Shown in pieces: positions 40,945 to 54,325 of a stretch of 64,000 bases of DNA (position 1 is its first letter; each line of letters begins with the position of its first letter). Below the pieces are notes generated by a model that did not search any database, was not told the DNA's origin, and saw nothing but the letters and a program-made list of their open reading frames with translations. Made by a program: the position numbers and the translations under genes. The stretch comes from an uncultured Spirochaetota bacterium (GTDB lineage Bacteria > Spirochaetota > Spirochaetia > SZUA-6 > Fen-1364). Where the stretch lies: positions 492,568 to 556,567 of the forward strand of contig CAWGAA010000002.1 of assembly GCA_963820525.1 (NCBI GenBank). Direction: 5' to 3'.

Positions 40945-41972
40945 AGCTGAAGACGCCGCTCACCTTCTCGGCTCTCATCGCGGCCCTTGCCATCGCGATC
41001 GTTGCCGCCGCCGGCATCGGCGCCGTCGCCGTTCCTCCCCTCACGTTTCTCAGGATGATTCTATACGGCATCGGCGTCCACTCCGTCGGGCTTCCCGCGC
41101 CCATTGACGTTACCATCATCGTGATGCTTCGGCTCCCCAGAATCGCGGCTGCCCTGCTTGTCGGCTCGGCGCTCGCCATGTGCGGTGCGGTCATGCAGGG
41201 ATTGTTCAGAAACCCCATGGCCAGCCCCGAGGTTCTCGGCCTCTCCGCCGGCGGAAGCCTCGGAGCGGTCATCGCAATCACGTCAGGGCTGGGAAGCGCG
41301 AGCCTTTTCTCCCTCCCTCTTTTGACGGTCGTGGGCGCCCTCTTTGCCGCGGCCGTCATCTACTGGATCGCCAGCCTGAAGGGGGCCACCTCGCTTCTGT
41401 TCGTGGTGCTTGCGGGCATGGCCGTCTCCTCGCTGTTGGGTGGAATCACGTCGGCCCTCCTCTTCTTATCGCGCGAGCAGGAGGTGAGCCAGTTCGTGTT
41501 CTGGACCATGGGGGGGCTGGATGGGCGGACGTGGCGGCATGTCCTGCTCGCGGCCCCCGTCCTCATACCCGGCATGGCGGGGCTCGCCCTGTTCTCCCGC
41601 GAGCTGAATGTCTTCAGCCTCGGAGAGCAGAGCGCCGCTTCCCTCGGGATGAGCGTGGAGAATACCAAGCGCGCGCTCTTGGCCCTCTCGGCCGTCGTGA
41701 CGGGAACCGCGATAGCGGTGAGCGGGCCCGTCGGTTTCATCGGGCTTCTGATCCCGCACTTCTTCCGCCTCATTTTAGGGCCGGATCACAGGACTCTCCT
41801 TCCCGCATCTGCCCTCGGCGGAGGCCTCTTCCTCATCGCCTCCGACCTCGTGGGCAGGGCCATCGCCCCGCCCTTCGAGATCCGCGTCGGAATCATAACG
41901 GCCATCCTGGGAAGCCCCTACCTGCTCTTCCTCGTTGTGCGCTCGCAGAAACGGAGGGCAGCCCCTCAATGA
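40941..41972 (+). CDS. FecCD/BtuC-family permease
   Basis: RLPRI, QGLFRNPMASP, GFIGLLIPH, GIITAILGSP. Confidence 0.92.
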   Translation: MKLKTPLTFSALIAALAIAIVAAAGIGAVAVPPLTFLRMILYGIGVHSVGLPAPIDVTIIVMLRLPRIAAALLVGSALAMCGAVMQGLFRNPMASPEVLGLSAGGSLGAVIAITSGLGSASLFSLPLLTVVGALFAAAVIYWIASLKGATSLLFVVLAGMAVSSLLGGITSALLFLSREQEVSQFVFWTMGGLDGRTWRHVLLAAPVLIPGMAGLALFSRELNVFSLGEQSAASLGMSVENTKRALLALSAVVTGTAIAVSGPVGFIGLLIPHFFRLILGPDHRTLLPASALGGGLFLIASDLVGRAIAPPFEIRVGIITAILGSPYLLFLVVRSQKRRAAPQ

Positions 41973-43219
41973 ACGGCAGGGAGGATAAAACGCGGCTCCT
42001 GGAATCCGATGGAATGGGCTTTTCAGTCGGAGAGAAGCGCATTCTGCATGATGTGAGCTTCAGCCTGGGGAGGGGAGAGCTTGTCGGCGTCATCGGGCCG
42101 AATGGGGCGGGGAAGACCACGCTCCTGCGCCTCGCGAGCGGGCTGCTTCCTCCTTCCTCCGGCAGCGTCTCTTTTTCGGGAGAGAAGCTCGCCGCCCTGC
42201 GCCCGCGCACGAGGGCGCGTCTTGTATCCTTCATGAGCCAGGACATACCACAAGAGATCTCTTTCTCCGTGCTCGAGGTCGTGCTCATGGGGCGCTATCC
42301 CCACCTCGCCCGGTTCCAGAGGGAATCCGCCGAAGACATCGAGAAGGCGCGCCGCATGCTCGCCTACGTCGGGCTATCCGGCTTCGAGGAAAGGCCCTTC
42401 GGCGAGCTTTCAGGGGGCGAGCGGCAGCTGGCGCTCTTCGCCCGCGTCCTGGCGCAGGAGGCGGAGCTTGTCGTGCTCGACGAGCCGAGCTCGCACCTGG
42501 ACTTGCGTCATGAAGACGCAATCTTCTCCATGGCCCAGGAGCTCGCGCGGGAAGGCCGGGGGGTGCTCGCCTCCGTGCACAACCTCAACGTCGCCTCCCA
42601 CTACTGCGGGCGCTTGATTCTACTGGACAGGGGCATGGTCGCCGCAGCTGGAAAGGCCGAGGAGGTGCTCGCGCCGGCGCTCCTCCAGCGGGTCTATGGG
42701 GTGAAGGCCATTGTGTCGAGAAGCGCGGCCACGGGAAGCGTCATGGTGAGCGTTGTGCCCTTGCGAGTGGAGGGCAGGGGCGTCCGCATTCACCTCATCG
42801 GCGGGGCGGGCTCCGCCGTGAACCTCACGCGCGAGCTCTACCGTCTGGGATTCGCTCTGACCGGCGGAATCGCTCACGCCCGAGACTCGGATGAAGCGCT
42901 GTGGAAGAGCCTGGGGATAGAGTGCTTCTCCGTGGACGCGTTCTCACGGATCTCGGATCGCGATGTCGAGCACGCGGCCGCCCGTGTCGAAGCGGCGGAG
43001 CTGGTAATCCTGTGCGCTTTTCCCATAGGGTTAGCAAACGTGGCAAACCTGAGGCTCGCCGCGCGGGCCCGCCGGCTCGTCATTCTGGAGCCGGGCCCCG
43101 GTGACCTGCAAAGGAGCTATTTCACGGACGACGCAAGCCGACTTTTCGAAGCGCTTGGAAAGTCCGCGGAAACGAGGAAGCAGAACGAGCTGGTTTCAGA
43201 GCTTGTCGGCGGCGCGTAG
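41969..43219 (+). CDS. BtuD/FecE-type ABC ATPase with C-terminal extension
   Basis: GPNGAGKTT, LSGGERQ, LDEP; extra domain IHLIGGAGSA. Confidence 0.9.
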   Translation: MNGREDKTRLLESDGMGFSVGEKRILHDVSFSLGRGELVGVIGPNGAGKTTLLRLASGLLPPSSGSVSFSGEKLAALRPRTRARLVSFMSQDIPQEISFSVLEVVLMGRYPHLARFQRESAEDIEKARRMLAYVGLSGFEERPFGELSGGERQLALFARVLAQEAELVVLDEPSSHLDLRHEDAIFSMAQELAREGRGVLASVHNLNVASHYCGRLILLDRGMVAAAGKAEEVLAPALLQRVYGVKAIVSRSAATGSVMVSVVPLRVEGRGVRIHLIGGAGSAVNLTRELYRLGFALTGGIAHARDSDEALWKSLGIECFSVDAFSRISDRDVEHAAARVEAAELVILCAFPIGLANVANLRLAARARRLVILEPGPGDLQRSYFTDDASRLFEALGKSAETRKQNELVSELVGGA

Positions 43220-43310
43220 CAGGCCCGCTAGCGGCGACCCGCTTGCAGCTTGCCCGGGACGGCGCGGAGCGGCGCCCCGCTTGCCACATCGGTTTTGTCA
43301 CAAGACAGGC

Positions 43311-43367
43311 TGCCGGAGACGGGACTTGAACCCGTACAGCCCTTGCGGGCCGGGGGATTTTAAGTCC
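43311..43367 (-). repeat. att site: 57-bp exact copy of the tRNA-Leu 3' portion
   Basis: TGCCGGAGACGGGACTTGAACCCGTACAGCCCTTGCGGGCCGGGGGATTTTAAGTCC is identical to 51946-52002. Confidence 0.95.
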
Positions 43368-43547
43368 GTTTTCAATTCCCCACGCGCATACCCCTATTTA
43401 CTTATGTATACTATTGATATAGAATTAACGCAGTAGGATAAATCGTGGTATGTCTAAAAAGATGAGAATAGAAAAGGTTCTTCTCAGAAATCATCTCATT
43501 TTTCCAGGTATTAAGAGGTAGAGAATCAAGCAATAAGGGCGAGAAAT

Positions 43548-45674
43548 ATGATGAAACTCAAGAGGTTTCAAGTAACCGGCTTCCGATCAGTTAGCGATAG
43601 CGGCCCAATCGAGACCGATGACGTGACGGCGCTTATCGGAACGAATGAAGCGGGCAAAACCAACATTCTTCTGCCGCTCTGGAAATTAAGTCCTGCAAAG
43701 GAAGGCGAGATCGTGCCTACCGCGGACTACCCGAGAAAACTCTACAACATTCTTAGAAACCAAAAGCCGAAACCTGTGTTCATAAAAGCCGTATTCGAGG
43801 CTGATGACGCGGTCGCACAAGAGCTTTCGGCCAAGACTGGGATGCCAAAAGACGCCATGAGCGAGATAGAGGTTTCCCGCCGTTTCGATACTGAGTACGA
43901 AGTGGATTTTCCGAACGCCAATCCGCTCCGATCGATCAACACAGAAAGGGCCGCAACGATCATTCAGGGCGGAGAGAGGGAAATCGCTGCCATGGCAGCG
44001 GTCGAGGGTGAGAGCGATCTCAAGACGCTCATCGTGACCTCCCTTCGCACTGCGAAGGAGTCTTTTGGCAACAAGACTGAGGTCAACGCGGCCGATCTGG
44101 ACAGTGCTCTTGCCGTTATGGGGGGCGTGAAGATCGACGCCGCTCCAGCAACAAGCACTATTGCGCCTAGATTTCGCCAAGTGCAAGAGCAGATCGGCGA
44201 ATTGCGAAAAGGAATTTCTCGGCCTCACCCGCGAGAAGTCGATGCTGCTGTGAAGATCGTTCTAAAGAACATGCCCAAGTTCGTATATTACTCAACGTAC
44301 GGAAACCTGGATTCCGAAATCTATCTTCCCCATGTGATCGCAAACCTCAAGCGGTCTGACTTGGGCTTAAAGGAACAAGCCAAGGCAAGGACACTTAAAG
44401 TGCTTTTCGAGTTCGTGAAACTCCAACCGGAGGAGATCCTTGAATTGGGCCAAGATTTCAAGGTTACGAACCGTCAGCCCACGGAAGCCGAGATAGCAGC
44501 GATCGCCGAAAAAAAGAAACAAAGGAGCATCCTACTTCAATCCGCCTCAACTCTCCTAACTACTCAGTTTCGAGAATGGTGGAAGCAGGGGGAATACAGA
44601 TTCAGGTTCGAAGCGGATGGTGACCACTTCCGGATCTGGGTCTCGGATGATAAGCGGCCGGAGGAGATTGAACTCGAGGGCCGCAGTACAGGGCTTCAGT
44701 GGTTCCTGAGTTTCTACCTCGTCTTTCTGGTTGAAAGGGCGGATGCCCATGAGCAGGCCATCCTCTTGTTGGATGAACCAGGACTGTCCCTACATCCACT
44801 CGCACAACGCGATCTTTCGCAATTCTTCAATGGGCTCGCGAGCGACAACCAACTCATATACACGTGCCACTCGCCATTCTTGGTCGATGCTGACCGCCTG
44901 GATCGGGCGCGAAAGGTGTATGTTGGCAACGACGGCACTAGCAAGGTCACTCCTGATCTGAGAGCATCTGACGATCCGCCAGGGCAACGGGGTGCTGCAT
45001 ACGCAGTTCACGCTGCACTAGGGCTGAGTGTAGCCGAGAGTTTACTTCTTGGATGCGAGCCCGTTGTAGTGGAAGGTCAATCAGATCAGCACTACCTCAC
45101 TGCAATCAAGAACCTTCTCATAGCCGCAGGCCGGTTAAAGCCCGGGCGAGAGCTAGTATTTCCGCCTGCGGGGGGTGTCAAGGGAGTAAAGGCGGTTGTG
45201 AGTATTCTCGGAGGGCGAGACGAAGAGCTGCCCGTTGCTCTATTTGATAGCGATGAACAGGGCCATGCTACGGCGCAAGCGCTTCGAATAGGTCTCTACA
45301 CTGCCTGTCCAGAACTGGTGTTGGAAATGAAGGACTATGCGGGGTTCGAACATGCTGAGGTGGAGGACTTGATCCCACCCGAGGTGATAGCTCGGCAGCT
45401 TGATCGTTGGCAGCGAGGCGCGGAAAAGCCATTTTCTGAGACGGTGAGACAAGGGGAACCCATTGTTGCTCAAATTGAGGCGTGGGCGAAGAACAACCGT
45501 GTCACCCTTGAAGTCCCAGGTTGGAAGGTCGAGCTCTCAATTCGGGTCAAGCGGCAGATGCTATCTGACGGGCCAGCGGCCATTAAGGCTGAAGTTGCGG
45601 ATAAATGGGTGAAGTTATTCGAGACGTTTCGGGATTCTCGGGCAACTGCCCGGGAGCGACAGGCGGGAGAGTGA
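43548..45674 (+). CDS. OLD-like ABC-ATPase + TOPRIM nuclease
   Basis: FRSV, Walker A GTNEAGKT, signature RSTGLQW, Walker B LLLDEPGLSLHP, H-loop TCHSPF; TOPRIM VVEGQSD and LFDSD. Confidence 0.85.
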   Translation: MMKLKRFQVTGFRSVSDSGPIETDDVTALIGTNEAGKTNILLPLWKLSPAKEGEIVPTADYPRKLYNILRNQKPKPVFIKAVFEADDAVAQELSAKTGMPKDAMSEIEVSRRFDTEYEVDFPNANPLRSINTERAATIIQGGEREIAAMAAVEGESDLKTLIVTSLRTAKESFGNKTEVNAADLDSALAVMGGVKIDAAPATSTIAPRFRQVQEQIGELRKGISRPHPREVDAAVKIVLKNMPKFVYYSTYGNLDSEIYLPHVIANLKRSDLGLKEQAKARTLKVLFEFVKLQPEEILELGQDFKVTNRQPTEAEIAAIAEKKKQRSILLQSASTLLTTQFREWWKQGEYRFRFEADGDHFRIWVSDDKRPEEIELEGRSTGLQWFLSFYLVFLVERADAHEQAILLLDEPGLSLHPLAQRDLSQFFNGLASDNQLIYTCHSPFLVDADRLDRARKVYVGNDGTSKVTPDLRASDDPPGQRGAAYAVHAALGLSVAESLLLGCEPVVVEGQSDQHYLTAIKNLLIAAGRLKPGRELVFPPAGGVKGVKAVVSILGGRDEELPVALFDSDEQGHATAQALRIGLYTACPELVLEMKDYAGFEHAEVEDLIPPEVIARQLDRWQRGAEKPFSETVRQGEPIVAQIEAWAKNNRVTLEVPGWKVELSIRVKRQMLSDGPAAIKAEVADKWVKLFETFRDSRATARERQAGE

Positions 45675-45699
45675 CCGCCCTTAGAATAGGAGCAAGTCT

Positions 45700-45990
45700 A
45701 TGCCAACTTCGGTGAGGAACGTAGCAGGAACCGCAGATCTTTCCTGCAAATGCGGTTCGTGGATCAAGCATTGGGAGAGAGGATCTGGCAAGAGCGCTCT
45801 TGGATGTGGAGTTGTCGGATGTACCGGTCCTGCTGAAGTTGGCGCGCATGTCACGAAGGTGGGATCTCAAGACAGGGGCAGGTACATAGTGCCGATGTGC
45901 ACAACCCACAATTTCTACACTTCTATGGACTTATCGATCAAGGACAGCGTGCCACTCATTTCGGTCAATTGGCAGAATACTTGCGCGTGA
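45700..45990 (+). CDS. 96-aa Cys/His-rich protein, possibly HNH/His-Me-finger-like
   Basis: RBS AGGAG; CKC..W..HW, CGVVGC, GAHV, IVPMCTTHN. Confidence 0.75.
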   Translation: MPTSVRNVAGTADLSCKCGSWIKHWERGSGKSALGCGVVGCTGPAEVGAHVTKVGSQDRGRYIVPMCTTHNFYTSMDLSIKDSVPLISVNWQNTCA

Positions 45991-46308
45991 GGATCCTGTG
46001 GCGGGAATCGCACTCGCCACCTCACAGAGATTGAGACGCACTTTCGCCAACACCTGCGCGGTTTCCCGCCTCAGCGATCTCCTCAAGGGGTAATCGCCCG
46101 CCGAAGGCCTCCGATAGCACGCCTGCCACCTGAACCGCCCCGGCCTCGGCATGAGCACTGCCAGGGGAAGGCCTGCTCCATCATGAAGGAGGCGGACCGT
46201 GCGGTTCATCAATTCGCCGCCCATGCCTGAGCTTCCGCCCGATTGAGCTGCATGAGCAGCCGTGGCCGGGGAGCGTGCCCGCCATCCCGGATGGCCACCA
46301 GGAGCCAA

Positions 46309-46881
46309 GGGCTTTATAAAGGTGAACTACGAGCAACCGAAAAGCATTTAGCGAAAGGTGCGCTAATGTATTTCGTTCGCCTTCAGATGGCACATCTCAC
46401 TGAAGGAATGAAGGTTCTTCAACAGCTTGAAACTGTTCCCAGTTTTAAAAGAGTCTTTTCTTCCTGTCGCTCATCTGCGCAAGAAGCATATAAGCGTTTA
46501 ATACCTTTCACTCAACCAGGACCAGAAAAAACGTGGTTCGATAATAATGTCGCTACTACGCGTAGTAACTTGACTTTTCACTATCATGAATCAGGAAAAT
46601 GGATAAACTGGGCATTAGCAGATAGGGCTTCCAGAGCAGTGGCAGAGCGATCATCAATAACATACGGTGATCACGGACATCTCTGGCGTTTCCATATTGC
46701 AGACAATATTCTTGATAGTATTATGTGTCGTAAAATCTGGAAAATACCCAAATCATCTGATGTACAGAAAGAAGCAGATATAGTAATCAGCAAAATCTAT
46801 AATATCTATCGCAACTTTATCAACTTTGCATTAGTATTTATGTTAGAATATTTGAAGCAGACTATTGTAGCCTTGAAATAA
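46309..46881 (+). CDS. 5'-truncated cassette gene, HEPN-like (R-x5-H)
   Basis: AT-rich part of ORF 46243-46881; RSNLTFHY motif in a helical protein; followed by an attC-like site. The 5' boundary is approximate, set by the GC shift. Confidence 0.55.
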   Translation, partial: GLYKGELRATEKHLAKGALMYFVRLQMAHLTEGMKVLQQLETVPSFKRVFSSCRSSAQEAYKRLIPFTQPGPEKTWFDNNVATTRSNLTFHYHESGKWINWALADRASRAVAERSSITYGDHGHLWRFHIADNILDSIMCRKIWKIPKSSDVQKEADIVISKIYNIYRNFINFALVFMLEYLKQTIVALK

Positions 46882-46888
46882 TCTTGGC

Positions 46889-47003
46889 GTCTAGCATGCT
46901 GTTGGAGTGACAGAATAGGCTGTCGCCGTGACTTATAGTTACATGAGTTATGACCTTTTGTACTTAGATGATTCGGGGCGGCAACTCAACAGCGTCGTTG
47001 CAC
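46889..47003 (+). repeat. attC-like site 1
   Basis: R'' GTCTAGC, L'' GCTGTTGGAGT, L' GCAACTCAACAGC, R' GTTGCAC; arms complementary with an extra G. Confidence 0.8.
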
Positions 47004-47053
47004 GCATTTAGACAAGGTGATGTAATACTCCAGTATCATGCGGGAGGTTATGA

Positions 47054-47953
47054 ATGAACAATAGATTCGATGAAGTAAAAGAACATCTCAGGAAACTTTC
47101 AATAATCAAAGAAGCACTGCAAGCTCTTATCCATTTCAACGAAGAGGCAATAAGTTCTTTGTCGTGGCAGAATCGGTTCCTGGGTAATAGTTTGATAAGC
47201 ACATCCTTCGCGATCGATCTATATGGCTCTCTTGTTGAACCAAAAGTGAATGAGATGTCGGAAACTGACTTCAGAGGGATGATGAATCCACTATCGAACA
47301 TGGTCCGGTTTGGAACTACGTTCATCACGCTCCATAGAACAAAAGACGTAAAGAGCTACTTGCAGACATTTGAGGCAACTGCAAGCGGTGGCTCAGCAGT
47401 TTTCTCAGCATCAGTGGCAGATAGCACTGTCAATTTCATTGGATTTACACACCCCCAAGAACCGGAGAGAGCTAGAATTCAAGGTCTGCTTGAAACATAC
47501 TTCAGCCAGCTGAAACCAGAAGAAGACATTAGGTATATTGAAGAAAGGCTTCCGAAGATTCTCCCAAACGTTGCTGAAGACTTCAAGCACTTCCTTGCCA
47601 ATTACTACGCGTCAAAGCAGAATGAACTCAAGTATCAGGAACTGATTGCATTCAGAACCATCTTTTTTATGAAACTAGTCGAGGAATTTGCGAAATTGCA
47701 TGGATGTCCAGATTCTGTATCACGGAAAGAGAAGATTACGTTTTTTGCATTCAAATCTTCGAAAACCACCGACCCCAATGCAGAGAAAATAGCCGAGGCC
47801 GCATTCTCTTTATGGAAAACGCTATCTACTCAAGATAGCTCGGCTTTAAGCGTAAAGATGGGAAACGTCACCGCCAGTTATATCGATTTGCTATTTCACA
47901 ATGTTCTTATCGTGGCAGCTACGCTCCTAAGGCAAAATGAGAACTATTGGTAA
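47054..47953 (+). CDS. Cassette-encoded hypothetical protein (299 aa)
   Basis: RBS GGAGG; AT-rich ORF exactly filling the space between attC-like sites 1 and 2. Confidence 0.8.
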   Translation: MNNRFDEVKEHLRKLSIIKEALQALIHFNEEAISSLSWQNRFLGNSLISTSFAIDLYGSLVEPKVNEMSETDFRGMMNPLSNMVRFGTTFITLHRTKDVKSYLQTFEATASGGSAVFSASVADSTVNFIGFTHPQEPERARIQGLLETYFSQLKPEEDIRYIEERLPKILPNVAEDFKHFLANYYASKQNELKYQELIAFRTIFFMKLVEEFAKLHGCPDSVSRKEKITFFAFKSSKTTDPNAEKIAEAAFSLWKTLSTQDSSALSVKMGNVTASYIDLLFHNVLIVAATLLRQNENYW

Positions 47954-47968
47954 TATGAACACAAATGC

Positions 47969-48064
47969 GTGTAACATGCGATTGGAGTTGTTCGCCAAGT
48001 CTACGCGTGTTGAATCATTTACACATAGATGATTCGGGGCGGCAACTCATCAGCTTCGTTAGGT
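47969..48064 (+). repeat. attC-like site 2
   Basis: R'' GTGTAAC ... R' GTTAGGT; shares TAGATGATTCGGGGCGGCAACTCA with site 1. Confidence 0.85.
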
Positions 48065-48077
48065 GGTCATAGATTCA

Positions 48078-49085
48078 ATGACATTCGCCCAGCTGATAAA
48101 CCGTATCCGCACTGAGACCAGATACAAGTCCTGTTTCGTTAGTGATTCCTCTTGCTCAACAAGAATAGTTAGGTCGCATTCCATTCAGAATTCTCGGATA
48201 CTTAGGCGTATTTCCTTGAACGGCATGGTCTTAACTATTCAAGCATCAGATCGGATACTCGGCTTTTCTTCCGTTGGCCGCAAGACCGCATCGACCTTTT
48301 CGGGATTCTGCTCGTTTCACGACGATAAGATTTTCAAACTGATAGAGACCGACGATTTCTCTCCTATTGATGCCCACTTCGTACGGCACGCTTACAGGGC
48401 ACTCGCTCTTGAATACAACAAAAAAACTTCAATCCTCAGAATGTACACTAAAATTCTTGAGTTGATGGAAACAAAACAATGGCAGAGATACCTTCGTGAC
48501 TGCACAGATATAAAACCTTCGCGCGCAAGTCCCGCCGAAACTTACAGAGATGTCGTTTCATACATTACTGGATCTCAGATTGAACTCGACAATATGAATA
48601 GGTTCCGAGCGCTGTTCGATGTTTTCTTTGAGACCTCCCACAACGACTTCTTGTCTTCCTTCTCAGTATCCTTTCCCTCTGAGTATCCCATCGCTGCCAC
48701 ATCGTCGATAACGATTGAGCATGACTTTCGAGGTAACCCAGTAAACGTTTTCCCTAAATCGGACATCTGCGATGAATCGAAACCGCTCTATCTAACTATT
48801 TTTCCACAAAACGGGCGTACACATGTTCTCCTCTCTCACTATGAAAGGGACCGCGACACCTACCGACCTTTAAGAAATGATCTGAAGAGTATGCGCATTA
48901 GAGATCTGAAGGTTGCAGTGACAAATTTGATTGCAAATCACATTGAGAACTTCTATGTCTCACCGGTTTATTGGAAGAGACTGGACGAACAAACAAAAGT
49001 CCATTTTCTCGAGGTTTTTCGGCAAACGCTTTTTTTCGCTGGGAGCGACTTGGCTCAACTTAAAGATATCAATATCTTCGTCTGA
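48078..49085 (+). CDS. Cassette-encoded protein with Zn/HNH-like N-terminus
   Basis: C-x6-C, SHSIQ, ASTFSGFCSFHD motifs; lies between attC-like sites 2 and 3. Confidence 0.7.
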   Translation: MTFAQLINRIRTETRYKSCFVSDSSCSTRIVRSHSIQNSRILRRISLNGMVLTIQASDRILGFSSVGRKTASTFSGFCSFHDDKIFKLIETDDFSPIDAHFVRHAYRALALEYNKKTSILRMYTKILELMETKQWQRYLRDCTDIKPSRASPAETYRDVVSYITGSQIELDNMNRFRALFDVFFETSHNDFLSSFSVSFPSEYPIAATSSITIEHDFRGNPVNVFPKSDICDESKPLYLTIFPQNGRTHVLLSHYERDRDTYRPLRNDLKSMRIRDLKVAVTNLIANHIENFYVSPVYWKRLDEQTKVHFLEVFRQTLFFAGSDLAQLKDINIFV

Positions 49086-49087
49086 CC

Positions 49088-49114
49088 GTCTAGCATGCTG
49101 TTGGAGTTGACCGC
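49088..49114 (+). repeat. attC-like site 3, left arm only
   Basis: GTCTAGCATGCTGTTGGAGTTGACCGC is near-identical to the site 1 left arm; no matching right arm found. Confidence 0.7.
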
Positions 49115-49386
49115 TTAAGCTACCTGTCTTTAGGCCGCCCTTGACCAGTCGGGCTCGGAGCTAAAGTTTCAATGAGTTTCGATTTGCATGGAATGCTCTG
49201 ATTGAGTTGTTTAGAAGACAGATATAGAAGGTGTATCAATCTGGAGTTCCCCCGATTTCGTGGACACCCTGAATTGCACCTGCGTCTCGGTTTCGGGGGG
49301 GTATCCAAACACCACCTGCCTTCCGAAAACGCAACCACGGCCCTCTACGCGCAAGGCTTTTTCCTCACTCTGGCTTGGATCGTCAA

Positions 49387-50256
49387 TCATGCCGTCTTCC
49401 GCTCCTCGAGCTCCTCATATTCGGTCGGTGTGAGGTAGCCGAGGTACGAGTGAAGCCGCTTGCGATTATAGAAGATCTCCACGTATTCGAATATTGCTCT
49501 CCTGGCCTCCTCTCTGCTTCGGTAGATCTTGTCCCGAATCAACTCTGCTCTCAAGGTCTTGAAAAACGTCTCCGCGCACGCGTTGTCCCAACAGTCGCCC
49601 TTACGGCTCATGCTTTGAATGAATCCGTGCCCTTTGGCAAACTTTTCAAACTGACCGCTGGTATACTGCACACCGCGATCGGAATGAAACAACAGTCCCC
49701 GCGGCGGGCGGCGACGAATCGCGGCCATGACTACCGCCGTCAGCACCAGCTCGGCACTCAGCTCGCAGCTCAGCGACCAGCCCGCCACTCGACGTGAGTA
49801 CAGATCCAGTACGATGCATAAATACATCCACCCTTCGGCTGTCGCAACGTAGGTTATGTCGGACACCCACACGCGATTCGCCGCGGAGGCTTCGAAGTTC
49901 CTGTTCACTATGTTTTCGGCCACTTCCTGGCCGTCTTTCGAGTGCGTGGTCACTACAAACCGCCTCTTCGGCTGCGGCCCAAGGGCATTCTCTCTCATGA
50001 TTCGGGCAACTCGGTTCTTCCCCACATGCCGCCCACGCCTCAGCAGTTCTTCCCGCATGCGCGGGCTTCCGTAGCTGTGACGCACCTCGCCCTGGATCTT
50101 CCGGATCTGCTCGATCAGCTCCTTCTCCTCGAGTGCTCGTGCACTCTCTTTACCGTCGAGCCAGGCATAGTACCCACTGCGCGCTACTCCCAATACTTCC
50201 GCCATCTTCTCCACGCCGTGGGTTCCCCGCTGTTTACTCATGATCTGGTACTTCAT
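49387..50256 (-). CDS. IS3 transposase OrfB (DDE)
   Basis: YGSPR, WVSDITY, FHSDRGVQY, DNACAETFF. Confidence 0.95.
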   Translation of the reverse strand: MKYQIMSKQRGTHGVEKMAEVLGVARSGYYAWLDGKESARALEEKELIEQIRKIQGEVRHSYGSPRMREELLRRGRHVGKNRVARIMRENALGPQPKRRFVVTTHSKDGQEVAENIVNRNFEASAANRVWVSDITYVATAEGWMYLCIVLDLYSRRVAGWSLSCELSAELVLTAVVMAAIRRRPPRGLLFHSDRGVQYTSGQFEKFAKGHGFIQSMSRKGDCWDNACAETFFKTLRAELIRDKIYRSREEARRAIFEYVEIFYNRKRLHSYLGYLTPTEYEELEERKTA

Positions 50257-50543
50257 CTCGGGGGTCTGGAGAAGATGGCTGTTGCTTTTCTTAGGATGTC
50301 CCGTTCCTCACGCAACTCCTTGTTCTCTTTGCGCAAGGCGGCCAATTCCTCGTCACGGGACCTGCCGTTGCCTGGGAAAGCTCGTGTCCCGTCCTCACTG
50401 AATTGCTTCCTCCAGCGGTAGATCTGTCCGCTGCCGATTCCCAGATCCCGTTCAATCTCATGTCCCGGCTTTGTCCCTGACTCCAGGAGCCGGATGGCAT
50501 CGAGCTTGAACTCTTTGGTGTATTTCTTCCTCGTGTCTGCCAT
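50253..50543 (-). CDS. IS3 OrfA (HTH)
   Basis: KYTKEFKLDAI, YRWRKQ, EERDILRKA; ATGA overlap with orfB. Confidence 0.95.
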   Translation of the reverse strand: MADTRKKYTKEFKLDAIRLLESGTKPGHEIERDLGIGSGQIYRWRKQFSEDGTRAFPGNGRSRDEELAALRKENKELREERDILRKATAIFSRPPR

Positions 50544-50813
50544 TGCCTTTCCTTACCCCTCTAAAATACTGCTTAACCATGTGTCTATGAAATCGGGGTA
50601 GGTCCAATCTCTACCTTGGCAGCTGAAGATCAAGAGATATTAAAGACAAATAGTGACTTTTATGTCGTGTTCTCTCTGCTATCTTTGGCTACGGTCGCAT
50701 CCTCAGCATATGCGATGTCTACATGGAACGCAACCTTTCAATTCTTCGGCTTGCATTCTAGCCCTTTCTTCCACTAAACTCAACAATTATCAGAAAGCAA
50801 GGAGGAAACGTTT

Positions 50814-51803
50814 ATGTCTAAAGGCGTGATTGACAGACCTATTCTTGAAACCCCCATCGCGATCATCGACTTCGAGACAACGGGGCTTGCACCTGGGCCA
50901 GACCGCGTCGTGGAAGTCTCCGTGGTCCGTGCTGAACCTGGAAAGGAGCCTGTTCTTGTTCTCGATACGCTAATCAATCCTGATCGCCCTATGGCAGCCA
51001 CGGAAATCCATGGAATTACAGATCGTGATGTTGTTGACGCTCCCAGGTTTTTCGAGATAGGCGGCGACTTTATTAGGGCGATCTCTGGCTGTGTTGTTGC
51101 TTCCTATAATGTCTATTTCGATATTGGCTTTCTTACCTATGAGCTTCGTAAAATTAGAGTTGCTTGCGTGCCGCCCCATGTTTGTCTTATGTATTTAAGG
51201 CCACTACTTGAAATGGGAAAACGCTGCTCCCTATTTACAGCTTGCTGTGAGTCAGGGATCCCGCTTCCTCATGCTCACCAATCCGCCGCTGACGCATTCG
51301 CGTCAGCACAACTTTGGAAAATATATCTGAGTGCCATGGAAGAGCATGGGATGCAGAAGTTCAAGGATCTTTCCCAAAAAAAACAATACAAATTTCTTAA
51401 TAGTCTTGAAGCGGATCCGCTATCACCGCCAACCGAAGCTGAAATGCCCCATCTGGCCAACGTAAAATCACGTTCTGTGAAGATGCAACAAGAGTATCAT
51501 AGAGGCGGAGCTCAGCCGCCCACACAAACAGTTGACAGGCATGATGTTATCCACCGTTACTGGAGTGAGCTCACCACAGTCCTCTCAGATTTAGAACTTA
51601 CTCGTGATGAAGCCAATGGACTCGCCAAGCTGAGGAATCAACTGAAGTTGACACAAGAAGAAATCAAAGGAATGCATGCTCGCGTTTTTGCGGATCTTCT
51701 ACTTCTTACGATCGAAGACAGAATCATAAGCGCTGACGAACAAAACCAGATTCAGCGCCTCTATAGGTGCCTCGCGAAGCTCGGATGGGCACCGGGACAG
51801 TAA
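50814..51803 (+). CDS. DEDDh 3'-5' exonuclease with C-terminal TerB-like helical repeats
   Basis: IDFETTG, YNVYFD, HQSAADA; tail repeats SDLELTRDE / EDRIISADE; RBS AGGAGG. Confidence 0.85.
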   Translation: MSKGVIDRPILETPIAIIDFETTGLAPGPDRVVEVSVVRAEPGKEPVLVLDTLINPDRPMAATEIHGITDRDVVDAPRFFEIGGDFIRAISGCVVASYNVYFDIGFLTYELRKIRVACVPPHVCLMYLRPLLEMGKRCSLFTACCESGIPLPHAHQSAADAFASAQLWKIYLSAMEEHGMQKFKDLSQKKQYKFLNSLEADPLSPPTEAEMPHLANVKSRSVKMQQEYHRGGAQPPTQTVDRHDVIHRYWSELTTVLSDLELTRDEANGLAKLRNQLKLTQEEIKGMHARVFADLLLLTIEDRIISADEQNQIQRLYRCLAKLGWAPGQ

Positions 51804-51945
51804 AAGCCATAGTTATCTCCGTACGTGCATCCCAGTCGTCAAAGTAGGCTTGAGAGATTCACTGTCGATCGATTGACCCTATCGTTGCACTAAATCTGGC
51901 GTTTATGTGATGCGGAGGAGCGACTTTATATTATAAAGAATTGTA

Positions 51946-52031
51946 TGCCGGAGACGGGACTTGAACCCGTACAGCCCTTGCGGGCCGGGGGATTTTAAGT
52001 CCCCTGTGTCTCCCAATTCCACCACTCCGGC
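51946..52031 (-). tRNA. tRNA-Leu (anticodon TAA), 86 nt, CCA not encoded
   Basis: Acceptor stem GCCGGAG/CTCCGGC, D-loop GG, anticodon arm GGGGA-CTTAAAA-TCCCC, long variable arm, GGTTCAAGTCC. Confidence 0.96.
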
Positions 52032-52120
52032 GCATGGACGTGCAAGGGCGGCCGAGACAAGGATGTCGGAAGGCCGCCCCGACGCATGGACGTGCGCGTG
52101 CGCTGCAAGCCAAGGATGGC
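52031..52120 (+). repeat. Cluster of four short hairpins with ANGGAN loops
   Basis: CGC-ATGGAC-GTG (52031 and 52083), GAC-AAGGAT-GTC (52056), GCC-AAGGAT-GGC (52109); outer stem GGGCGGCC/GGCCGCCC. Confidence 0.6.
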
Positions 52121-52346
52121 GGTCTGCGGTGGCCCGGCGCATTCAACTGATTGCAGTAAAGAGAGTTAGCCGCCCGCCAATTCCTCCAACGTCATGTAGT
52201 CTTCCATCGGTTCATCAATGTGTCAAGCTTCCTATTGCAGAATCTTGTGATCAAGGATTCATGCCCCACAGAAAGTCTTACCCTATATGTGATTATAGTA
52301 TATACCCAATGTAGCTACATGATACGGGGGCAACGGGAGGAATGCG

Positions 52347-53165
52347 ATGGCAATAAAGGGTGAATGGATTCGCTACGAGGATCAGACAGGCTACTTTGCG
52401 GTGCCCGACCGCGCGGCGGAGCCGCTGCCCGCTGTCGTGGTCATCCAGGAAGTCATGGGGGTGAACGAGCATATCGAGGACGTGACCCGCCGCATCGCGG
52501 CGGCCGGCTATGCGGCCCTTGCTCCGGATCTTTTCGCGGTCGGGGGGGCGCGACCGGCGCCTCTCACGCGGGAGCGGATCGCGGAGAGCATGGCTTTCGG
52601 CGCCAGGCTCCCTCCTGGCGCGGCGTTTGACCCGGCCAGGAGGCAGGAGGCGCTTGCGAAGCTTCCCGAGGCGGAGCGGATTCGAATAAGCGAGACGTAC
52701 CAGCAGATGTTCGGGTCTGCCGCGCCGGGGCGGATGGAAACCCTGGTGGCCCCTTTGAAAACCGCCGTTCGCCACCTGCTCACGCGGCAAAAAGAAACAC
52801 GCGGGCAGAGGGTCGGCTGCGTGGGCTTCTGCATGGGAGGCGGGCTTTCAGCTCTCCTGGCCTGTGAAGAAGAGGATCTCTCCTGCGCCGCCGTCTATTA
52901 CGGAAACACGCCTGCCCCCGAGAAGATCGCAAAGGTCCATTGCCCGGTCATCGCCTTCTACGGCGCCGCTGACCAGCGGGTCAACGCGGGCATTCCCACT
53001 TTCCAGGAAGGGATGAAAAAGGCAGGCAAACCTTGCGAGCATCACATCTATGAAGGAGCCGGCCACGCGTTTTTCAATGACTCTGCGCCTTCGTATAACG
53101 TGAAGGCGGCCAGGGATTCCTTTTCGAGACTGCTTGCCTTCCTCCTGAAGAACCTCAGCGGGTAG
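52347..53165 (+). CDS. Dienelactone hydrolase family protein
   Basis: VIQEVMG, GFCMGG nucleophile, GAGHAF. Confidence 0.92.
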   Translation: MAIKGEWIRYEDQTGYFAVPDRAAEPLPAVVVIQEVMGVNEHIEDVTRRIAAAGYAALAPDLFAVGGARPAPLTRERIAESMAFGARLPPGAAFDPARRQEALAKLPEAERIRISETYQQMFGSAAPGRMETLVAPLKTAVRHLLTRQKETRGQRVGCVGFCMGGGLSALLACEEEDLSCAAVYYGNTPAPEKIAKVHCPVIAFYGAADQRVNAGIPTFQEGMKKAGKPCEHHIYEGAGHAFFNDSAPSYNVKAARDSFSRLLAFLLKNLSG

Positions 53166-53173
53166 GCGGGGAG

Positions 53174-54325
53174 GTGAGTCTCCATCGCGAATGCCTTGTG
53201 ATGGCAAAGCCCGCGGGCCCCCTCTGCAACATGCGCTGCCGCTACTGCTATTACCTGGGCAAGGAGTCCCTGTTCCCCCGCGGATTGGGCCGGATGGATG
53301 ACGACCTTCTGGAGAGGTACATCAGCCAGCGGCTGCAAACCTCGCCCGGGCCCGTCACTCATTTCGAGTGGCACGGCGGGGAACCGACCCTCCTCGGGCT
53401 CGAGTATTTCGGGAAGATTGTCAATATCCAGAAAAAATGCCTCCCGCCGGGACGAACCGTAACGAATGGGCTTCAGACCAACGGCCTGCTCTTGGATGAA
53501 CAGTGGGCCGGCTTTCTTGCCCGTGAGGAATTCTCCGTAGGCTTGAGCCTGGATGGCCCCGCCGGGCTTCATGACGTGTACAGACGGACCGCGGAAGGAG
53601 CGCCCACCCACGACCGCGTTGTGACAGCCTTCAGATTGCTCAAAGTGCGCAAAGTCTTTTGTAACGTGCTCTGCGTTCTGCATGCCAAAAACGCATCGAA
53701 ACCGGATGAGCTCTACGACTTTTTCAAGAGCATCGGTGTGACGCATTTGCAGTTCCTTCCTGTCGTCTCTCCCATGGCACGAGGCGGCGTGAGCCCCGTG
53801 ACAGCCTCACCTGAGGTGATCGGGGCGTTCCTCTGCAGGATCTTTGATCGATGGATACAGCGGGATGTGGGACGGATCGTGATTCAGAGCTTTGACGAAG
53901 CTCTGCGCCCAATCTACGGCGTTCCGCACGCCCTCTGCGTCCACAGGGAAACGTGCGGAGATGTCGCCGTATTGGAGCACGATGGAGGATTCTATGCCTG
54001 CGATCATTTTGTCGATTCCCGGCACTTCATCGGGAACCTGCGGGAACGAAGCCTGGCCGAATTGGCCTCCGATCCACGGATGATCCAATTCGGCAAAGCC
54101 AAAAAAGACTCGCTTCCCCGGGTCTGCCTCGGATGTGACGTCCTCTCTTCGTGCAACGGAGGCTGTCCCAAGGACAGGGTGATGATGTCCCCTGACGGTG
54201 AGGCCGGGCTGAACTACCTCTGCCCTGCATACCAGAGGTTCTTCCGCCACAGCAAACCGATCCTCACTCGCCTGGCGGCCCACATGAAGGCGGGACTGCC
54301 CCTGAGGGAATTTTCCACCCCGTAA
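53174..54325 (+). CDS. Anaerobic sulfatase maturase-type radical SAM/SPASM enzyme
   Basis: CNMRCRYC, WHGGEP, QTNG, SLDG, YACDH, CLGC...CNGGCP. Confidence 0.9.
   Translation: MSLHRECLVMAKPAGPLCNMRCRYCYYLGKESLFPRGLGRMDDDLLERYISQRLQTSPGPVTHFEWHGGEPTLLGLEYFGKIVNIQKKCLPPGRTVTNGLQTNGLLLDEQWAGFLAREEFSVGLSLDGPAGLHDVYRRTAEGAPTHDRVVTAFRLLKVRKVFCNVLCVLHAKNASKPDELYDFFKSIGVTHLQFLPVVSPMARGGVSPVTASPEVIGAFLCRIFDRWIQRDVGRIVIQSFDEALRPIYGVPHALCVHRETCGDVAVLEHDGGFYACDHFVDSRHFIGNLRERSLAELASDPRMIQFGKAKKDSLPRVCLGCDVLSSCNGGCPKDRVMMSPDGEAGLNYLCPAYQRFFRHSKPILTRLAAHMKAGLPLREFSTP

Follow-up and report, generated by a model that had tools for sequence, protein, structure and literature searches.

A Probable Decayed Integrative Element with Layered, Defence-Type Cargo at tRNA-Leu(TAA) of an Uncultured Spirochaetota Bacterium

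The stretch of DNA analysed here, 64,000 nt from an uncultured Spirochaetota bacterium (the window; assembly GCA_963820525.1, contig CAWGAA010000002.1, positions 492,568 to 556,567), contains an island of AT-richer DNA enclosed between the tRNA-Leu(TAA) gene and a displaced copy of its 3′ part. We favour, with moderate confidence, the explanation that this island is a decayed integrative element of the cis-mobilisable element (CIME) type, residing in tRNA-Leu(TAA), the content of which was acquired in layers. By this account, site-specific recombination within or close to the anticodon arm, presumably through the mechanism of a tyrosine integrase, would have brought an integrative element into the one tRNA-Leu(TAA) gene; integration would have copied the 3′ 57 nt of the tRNA, and because of this duplication the tRNA would have stayed intact. 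The element would later have shed its integrase, together with any transfer genes, and kept both attachment (att) repeats.

The first layer would comprise a conserved left arm, an OLD-family nuclease gene and a small Cys/His-rich gene (C96), and perhaps also a DEDDh exonuclease gene; the second would be a piece of integron cassette array, 2.8 kb long, whose attC sites are of the host's own integron family, joined illegitimately or trimmed later; the third would be a recent insertion of an IS3-family insertion sequence (IS). We infer this order for the OLD, DEDDh and cassette layers. The cargo genes would probably each form an anti-phage module of a single gene, working independently, OLD through ATP-dependent nicking or cutting of DNA and the DEDDh enzyme through 3′-5′ degradation.

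Limits of the Island

A repeat search of the window returned a direct repeat of 57 nt, 100% identical between 43311-43367 and 51946-52002, which corresponds to tRNA positions 30-86, beginning with the anticodon stem's 5′ strand and running through the 3′ end. An exact repeat of this length is far beyond chance, and the 57-mer is present at these two sites only within the genome. tRNA-Leu(taa) is the sole tRNA that ARAGORN and Rfam find in the window, and the genome has one tRNA-Leu(taa) among its 46 tRNAs; at the left repeat no tRNA was called by ARAGORN. The repeat search and the two tRNA tools agree with a first-pass annotation, made by a model from the letters alone, which had described an exact 57-bp repeat running from the anticodon arm to the tRNA 3′ end. 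Its AT-richer interior is likewise found, the enclosed DNA (43368-51945, 8,578 bp) having a GC content of 0.492 against 0.631 in the left flank and 0.604 in the right one. The interior holds one IS3 element and six open reading frames (ORFs) outside it, where five or six had been claimed. The coordinates of the features are collected in Table 1.

Table 1. Features of the island and its borders, in window coordinates.
Feature	Position	Strand	Basis or remark
attL, displaced copy of tRNA-Leu(TAA) 3′ 57 nt	43311-43367	-	100% identity to 51946-52002
Conserved ~150-bp arm, island left end	43368-43520	+	Sequence comparison with relatives
OLD-family ABC-ATPase/TOPRIM nuclease, 708 aa, class-1-like	43548-45674	+	Pfam, PADLOC, PDB match
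C96, 96-aa Cys/His-rich protein	45700-45990	+	ORF; AGGAG 6 nt before ATG
GC-rich non-cassette scrap, GC 0.658	45991-46300	.	Composition
Cassette 1 ORF, 5′-truncated	46291-46881	+	Homologue alignment
attC 1, complete	46889-47003	+	75-82% identical to many own-integron attC-like sites
Cassette 2 ORF (p299), 299 aa, uncharacterised	47054-47953	+	ORF
attC 2, complete, ends GTTAGGT	47969-48064	+	Folds as imperfect hairpin
Cassette 3 ORF (p335), 335 aa, Cys/His family	48078-49085	+	From ATG 48078
attC 3, 5′ half only	49087-49135	+	Query positions 4-53 alone match integron attC sites
IS3-family insertion sequence, 1365 bp	49242-50606	-	orfA HTH_Tnp_1, orfB rve (Pfam); overlapping orfs
DEDDh (DnaQ-like) 3′-5′ exonuclease, C-terminal extension, 329 aa	50814-51803	+	Pfam, PADLOC, NCBIfam, PDB
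tRNA-Leu(TAA), functional, attR	51946-52031	-	ARAGORN and Rfam; 3′ 57 nt = right repeat

A recombinase belonging to the island was not seen, as the first-pass annotation had also noticed: Pfam, run on the eight island ORFs, returned no recombinase except the IS3 transposase, and a six-frame search of the whole genome for PF00589 gave 12 matches, none of them in the window. The same annotation had called the element decayed or trans-mobilised; the absence of an integrase stands, while these two alternatives are indistinguishable. Contigs of four out of 17 metagenome runs (none of the 17 being recorded as RNA), which cannot reveal rare forms, were compared with 41500-53500. None of them joins 43310 to 52003, or 51945 to 43368 (the circle junction), a result that is uninformative either way; one X3 contig stops at 43311 with 8 mismatching letters and is uninterpretable.

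The Junction in Related Genomes

The segment 41200-54300 of the window was searched in 40 relatives (G numbers below, with contigs as C numbers), and 12 loci carrying a homologue of the ABC-ATPase gene, which ends at 43219 in the window, were compared. In seven of the 12 (G014, G001, G013, G018, G024, G004 and G007) ARAGORN finds a full tRNA-Leu(taa) 0.1-0.9 kb 3′ of the ABC gene, and the ABC gene with its adjoining intact tRNA-Leu is the empty site. Such an empty ABC-tRNA-Leu junction in related genomes was what the first-pass annotation had proposed to look for. The ~90 nt upstream of the window tRNA (52032-52122) have homologous counterparts upstream of the tRNA in G014, G013 and G001, and the right junction is therefore ancestral. 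Synteny with the relatives stops ~300 bp or less from the tRNA, which is a synteny breakpoint.

The remaining five loci (G008, G006, G017, G010 and contig 2 of G005) have the ABC gene without a neighbouring tRNA; it is followed by a partial tRNA-Leu, corresponding to the 3′ part, and then by the arm. G005 has its complete tRNA 34 kb farther along, and in G017, G010 and G008 the complete tRNA is on a different contig. Compared with the tRNA of its own genome, the partial copy is identical at 57/57 positions in the window, 56/57 in G010, 55/57 in G008 and 51/57 in G017, and in G005 it is decayed, with a deletion. Since the partial copies differ in age and the variable arms are species-specific, repeated site-specific events are favoured over a single ancient one.

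Within their own genome the island proteins are unique, and they have no homologues in the relatives' loci examined. For OLD, distant partial matches alone were found, in three of the 40 relatives; the DEDDh exonuclease has a single close relative in the 40 genomes, a 64-aa match, 86% identical, at the edge of a G003 contig, where the upstream context is a different one. The same genes occurring as core genes in relatives, the outcome that the first-pass annotation had considered fatal to its reading, is not what was found, as cargo orthologues were absent from the 40 relatives save for that 64-aa match.

Some further features of the site were recorded. In G021 (G021:C35:106000-124000) a different insertion of ~12 kb occupies the same tRNA-Leu, with a partial tRNA that is 45 nt long and decayed (37/45 identical) and without the arm, and the tRNA-Leu site appears to have been struck by more than one kind of element. 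The upstream region of tRNA-Leu contains a 29-nt direct repeat, 79% identical (52022-52050 and 52074-52102), in a region kept in G014, G013 and G001, and it perhaps serves the tRNA-Leu as a promoter or regulatory element. To the right of the tRNA, the genes for a dienelactone hydrolase and a radical-SAM/SPASM protein (52347-54325) lie on contigs other than that of the ABC-tRNA-Leu locus in all relatives that have both.

The Conserved Left Arm

The left end of the island is the portion that is shared most clearly with other genomes: window positions 43368-43508 are 72-77% identical to ~150 nt at exactly the same position, after the partial tRNA-Leu, in five other species. Copies of the arm that lack the tRNA 3′ part were also found in three low-GC regions (G021 contig 28, G005 contig 4 and G019 contig 9), and in two of these three the far side of the arm is occupied by genes for a relaxase of MobA/VirD2 type and a coupling protein of VirD4/TraG type, the relaxase being 0.2-1.0 kb off. 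The low-GC stretch of G005 (G005:C4:712600-797000) is at least 85 kb long and begins at a tRNA-Arg(cct) with an adjoining tyrosine integrase. By its distribution, the arm is a sequence of a family of conjugative elements, for which the roles of an attP arm, an origin of transfer (oriT) or a promoter region are all possible. In the relatives that have large low-GC conjugative elements (G005, G021:C28), the arm was observed between variable cargo (KAP NTPase, DUF5131, DEAD/MZB helicase) and the genes for relaxase and type IV coupling protein.

Across 43312-43385, that is, the repeat plus the arm, Rfam gives a tRNA-Sec match of 22 bits, under the gathering score, which suggests a degenerate tRNA 5′ half after the left repeat; Rfam found nothing else on the arm. 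The start of the arm, right after the 57-bp repeat, is a degenerate look-alike of the tRNA D-arm region, and the arm may have originated as a captured tRNA copy. The arm includes a promoter-like TTTACT-17-TAGAAT (43397-43425), and in a promoter and terminator scan the counts of promoter-like and terminator sequences in the region were not above those of shuffles.

An Integron Fragment and an IS3 Insertion as Later Layers

Three attC sites, two complete and one partial, follow promoterless ORFs in the island, with no IntI nearby. Sites of this kind are imperfect hairpins with R″/L″-L′/R′ boxes. attC 1 folds as an imperfect hairpin, GCTGTTGGAGT being paired with ACTCAACAGC, and for attC 3 a hairpin partner was not found. 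attC 1 and attC 2 have 75-97% identity with portions of the 113 + 4 integron sites of the same genome, and by this kinship the cassette attC sites are those of the host's own integron family. The 113 attC-like sites (C1:683767-823560) have a median spacing of 888 bp and a GC content of 0.443 (genome 0.604), and start 0.4 kb from an IntI gene (TIGR02249, 410 bits). All the attC-like sites have one orientation, and none is found elsewhere in the genome except the three in the window; both integrons are on a contig other than that of the island. Outside the window, the larger array was recorded as a very large sedentary chromosomal integron (G000:C1:682089-823560) with ~140 kb of attC-like sites, and the second integron (C1:1954217-1963689) as having an IntI (TIGR02249) of 449 bits and 4 attC-like sites.

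The ends of the cassette block do not coincide with attC/attI crossover points (G|TT), the left end lying inside the first ORF and the right one being half an attC, so that the block is a 2.8-kb fragment broken at both ends. Such ends point to illegitimate recombination or later trimming, not to a clean IntI insertion. The block resembles an integron cassette array, or an attC-site cluster that lacks an integron integrase (CALIN), in its two complete and one partial attC after ORFs, in the lack of a near IntI and in having sites of the host's sedentary-integron family; it differs in that both ends are broken and in its position inside a tRNA island, on a contig other than that of the integrons. 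As presented in one preprint, many anti-phage systems are encoded in integron cassettes, and clusters of attC without an integrase count as an established class (bioRxiv 10.1101/2024.07.02.601686).

The left break falls in cassette 1, whose 12 homologues are 137-261 aa long. Homology begins at RSQG (~46300), where the GC content switches, and the nearly invariant N-terminal MMACNDMxLAN of the family is replaced; the scrap at 45991-46300 is fused to this ORF. The scrap was considered as a remnant of intI or attI, and this was rejected, as it has no similarity in its own genome (blastn, tblastx) and no family was found for its 125-aa minus-strand ORF. An R46-x4-H51 motif (Rx4H) is invariant in 11/11 cassette 1 sequences. 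In the ESM Atlas, cassette 1 scores 0.93 to nameless clusters and only 0.85 to HEPN_AbiU2, a name borne by 35% of that cluster, and neither Pfam and other family searches nor a PDB-sequence profile gave a match to HEPN. The cassette 2 product, p299, has one homologue, of 59% identity, an ESM Atlas best of 0.82 and no family in Pfam, PADLOC, NCBIfam or PHROGs.

The IS3 element has terminal inverted repeats of 26 nt and is flanked on either side by ATC, a target duplication of 3 bp; target duplications of IS3-family elements are 3-4 bp long. Three other copies, 98-100% identical, are present in the genome, one of which, 100% identical, lies 2 kb beyond the last attC of the second integron. Because of this duplication and of the identical copy elsewhere, the IS3 arrived last; it is a simple recent insertion that deleted nothing. 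Loss of the integrase through an IS3-mediated deletion was a candidate explanation and was discarded, as the IS3 has its own ATC target duplication. The first-pass annotation had proposed a sequence of island, then integron cassettes, then IS3: the layers, the kinship of the attC sites and the late arrival of the IS3 were upheld, while the cassette block turned out to be a broken fragment and not a clean product of IntI.

The Nuclease Genes and the Uncharacterised Cargo

The OLD protein matches AAA_15 (6e-21) and AAA_21 (7e-15) in Pfam, and Old (1.4e-22, residues 398-555), AriA, GajA and HEC-01A in PADLOC, while Pfam OLD-like_TOPRIM did not match it at E ≤ 0.01. Its sole relative in the PDB is 6p74, of the OLD family (E 3e-8), in an alignment that reaches the TOPRIM glutamate in VVVEGQSD; the DxD motif, FDSDEQG, is located beyond it. 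Downstream of OLD there is no helicase gene, the next gene being C96. In the account of PMC7049728, class 1 OLD is recognised by the lack of a UvrD/PcrA-like helicase gene immediately downstream, and by this criterion the protein is class-1-like; proteins of this class are described as shown to protect against phage (PMC12392090, PMC13261556). Like the class 1 OLD proteins of phage P2 (Old), Thermus scotoductus (6P74) and Vibrio cholerae, it has an N-terminal ABC-type ATPase and a C-terminal TOPRIM with glutamate and DxD, and a UvrD-like helicase gene is absent downstream. Unlike them, it has behind it a small Cys/His gene, which does not regularly accompany OLD; the protein is only distantly similar to 6p74, is 708 aa long and has a long insertion in the ATPase.

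C96 is probably co-transcribed with OLD. Its invariant residues are C16, C18, H24, C36, C41, H50, C67, H70, N71 and C95. A word index gave three homologues, and with one genome per species 18 loci were found in diverse phyla, including one archaeon. C96 had no family match and no PDB match by sequence. AlphaFold2 (AF2) gave one confident model of five, with a predicted local distance difference test (pLDDT) score of 79, for which Foldseek found nothing in the PDB at E ≤ 0.001 and the wide VIA search a best Z of 3.9, with no nuclease among the top rows. Among 113 neighbouring ORFs, PADLOC matches (E ≤ 1e-15) lie within 3.5 kb of C96 in 8 of the 18 loci, one of them a doubtful Cas12f/TnpB-like match; one locus, from a Pfam scan of the nearest 38 of the 113 ORFs, stands between prophage capsid and portal genes. 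OLD and C96 as a regular two-gene system was considered and rejected, since an OLD-family neighbour is present at only 1 of the 18 other C96 loci.

p335, the product of cassette 3, belongs to a family with 2146 representative clusters (50% identity) at E ≤ 1e-3, in which C19, H34, C78, H81, D82 and N291 are invariant. None of 45 members has a Pfam match, and the family matches nothing in NCBIfam, PADLOC or PHROGs. The AF2 model is of high quality (pLDDT 92.6; predicted template modelling score, pTM, 0.92); its fold found no match in the PDB (Foldseek) or in BFVD, and the wide VIA search gave a best Z of 5.7, on a helical hairpin, with no nuclease in the top rows. Profiles of the C96, p335 and cassette 1 families, searched against PDB sequences with a cut-off of E ≤ 1, gave 0 matches. 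The family occurs in 7 of 300 other genomes of the phylum, and in six of these seven loci, from four genera, PADLOC matches (E ≤ 1e-12) lie within 6 kb of the p335 homologue, the nearest 61 of 79 ORFs having been scanned. These neighbours include directly adjoining type IIG and type II restriction genes, Kiwa and Ppl, and one copy is inside a type I restriction-modification (R-M) operon. This company makes p335 a candidate new defence gene.

The DEDDh exonuclease matches Pfam RNase_T (1.3e-18), PADLOC PDC-S48 (6.8e-58, residues 15-320) and PADLOC DEDDh (2e-27), and also NCBIfam DEDDh families and the exonuclease domains of PolC and epsilon in the PDB. PDC systems are introduced in their source as 145 untested candidates, predicted from embedding in BREX, DISARM or type I R-M systems (bioRxiv 10.1101/2024.01.29.577857); the name PDC-S48 was not found in the paper texts, the supplementary tables being outside that search. 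The window protein has in common with PDC-S48 a full-length match to the hidden Markov model of this single-gene DEDDh exonuclease candidate, whereas the model compared is itself an untested prediction. Of the nuclease-like motifs noticed in the first pass, ATPase-TOPRIM and DEDDh were thus borne out by Pfam, PADLOC and the PDB, while the HNH-like and HEPN-like ones are motif-only, with no profile match and, for C96 and p335, no fold match; HNH (His-Me finger) nucleases are marked by a beta-beta-alpha-metal fold with a catalytic His, and HEPN by an Rx4-6H motif within an all-helical domain.

Alternative Explanations

The main rival to a decayed integrative element is an integrase-free exchange hotspot, in which the partial tRNA with its arm and the complete tRNA would be old conserved flanks, the cargo would have been swapped by homologous recombination, the identity of the 57 bp would be due to gene conversion, and the 8.6 kb would never have been integrated site-specifically. 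Such a hotspot would account for a tRNA/arm junction that is common to two genera, in which the ABC genes are only ~67% identical while the arms are 72-77% identical, for the lack of an integrase within or next to the islands of this locus (in the window and the three relatives checked) and for the cargo behind the arm, which is wholly different between genomes. It is nevertheless unlikely in our view, because seven relatives, five of which share a genus with species that bear the arm, have the plain ABC-tRNA junction without the arm, and vertical inheritance would therefore need repeated precise loss. Moreover, the partial copies, ranging from 57/57 to decayed with a deletion, fit events of different ages better than a steady conversion, and the arm itself must be mobile, as it is found also inside conjugative elements away from any tRNA-Leu.

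A further view, that the island is a still-active hitchhiker, would have an integrase acting in trans and conjugation using the arm as a putative oriT for the relaxase of related elements. Both att repeats are indeed intact and identical, sequence homologous to the arm stands 0.2-1.0 kb upstream of the relaxase genes at two conjugative-element loci, and the 12 tyrosine-recombinase matches elsewhere in the genome could act in trans; CIMEs and integrative and mobilisable elements (IMEs) are described as moving in this way (PMC6323972). The relaxase and coupling protein of G021:C28, however, have no tblastn match in the genome at E ≤ 1e-5, and the arm is single-copy there, so that no helper of that type is present; present mobility of this kind seems quite improbable. 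An assembly artefact, such as a chimeric join at a repeated tRNA fragment, might be suspected from the metagenome-type read sets and from the short run contigs that break within the 57-bp repeat, yet it is hardly credible: the window is inside a 718-kb contig of a 4-contig genome, contigs from three runs of one study cover parts of the island at 99-100% identity, including the passage from the ABC gene into the left repeat (42932-43340), and the same junction architecture is present in five independent genomes.

Several observations weigh against the decayed element that we prefer. No PF00589 match was found in or beside the arm-side islands or near the tRNA in the three relatives checked (G005, G017 and G010), the nearest integrase-like match to an arm being a sub-threshold fragment of 69 aa, 4 kb away, on contig 4 of G005; as no cognate integrase stands beside any island at this locus, the integrase step is without a direct witness. 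The DNA behind the arm in the relatives is host-like in GC content and unrelated to the window, and among the 29 selected ORFs scanned there with Pfam the named genes are metabolic or regulatory. The arm copies in conjugative elements are preceded by only ~15 nt that resemble an anticodon stem-loop, and near them a second repeat was looked for and not seen within 8-33 kb, nor was a repeat of that kind or a tRNA 3′ part met with in 37, 12 and 19 kb; since neither accompanies these copies, the arm is perhaps not an attP arm. The defence cargo seen by the first-pass annotation was checked with PADLOC and is partly retained: two of the six genes match defence models, among them the untested candidate PDC-S48, and a further two come from families found among defence genes elsewhere. 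The gene of cassette 1, being truncated, may be dead.

A wider proposal can be made, which we regard as distinctly speculative and probably wrong as a whole. The arm would be a portable module, serving as an origin of transfer or as a landing pad for an integrase, and would be common to conjugative elements and, in at least six species, to the tRNA-Leu(TAA) junction; it would make integrase-less islands mobilisable in trans. The site would be a family-wide cargo-exchange hotspot able to recruit pieces of the host's giant integron, and p335, as one of the recruited cassettes, would stand for a defence family that is widespread and novel in structure.

Relation to Known Elements and Meaning

In its anatomy the island is close to CIMEs, defined in the account cited above (PMC6323972) as elements that keep their att sites, have lost integration and transfer genes and can be moved by a related integrative and conjugative element (ICE) acting at the same att site. 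Like the CIMEs mobilised by ICESt3 of Streptococcus thermophilus, it has intact attL/attR direct repeats at a tRNA-type site, no integration or transfer genes, accessory cargo, and one end related to conjugative-element sequence. It differs from them in that no cognate ICE or integrase was found in the genome, in that its mobilisation is only putative and in that its cargo includes an integron-cassette fragment. With the tRNA islands that have a P4-like integrase it shares a repeat of the tRNA 3′ part from the anticodon arm, a lower GC content, defence-type cargo and an empty site in relatives, whereas the integrase next to the tRNA is missing and a DEDDh exonuclease gene is there instead.

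The element is thus of an ordinary kind, a CIME-like tRNA island with defence-type cargo, and its uncommon ingredient is the fragment of the host's own integron. Current concepts are unchanged by it, as CIME-like islands, CALINs and defence cassettes have already been described. The island shows how defence genes accumulate in a little-studied environmental lineage, in an element that lost its mobility genes, gained a fragment of the host integron and was hit by an IS, and it joins two gene-capture systems that are usually treated apart, tRNA islands and integrons. It also draws attention to two uncharacterised families, p335 and C96, which keep company with defence systems in other phyla.

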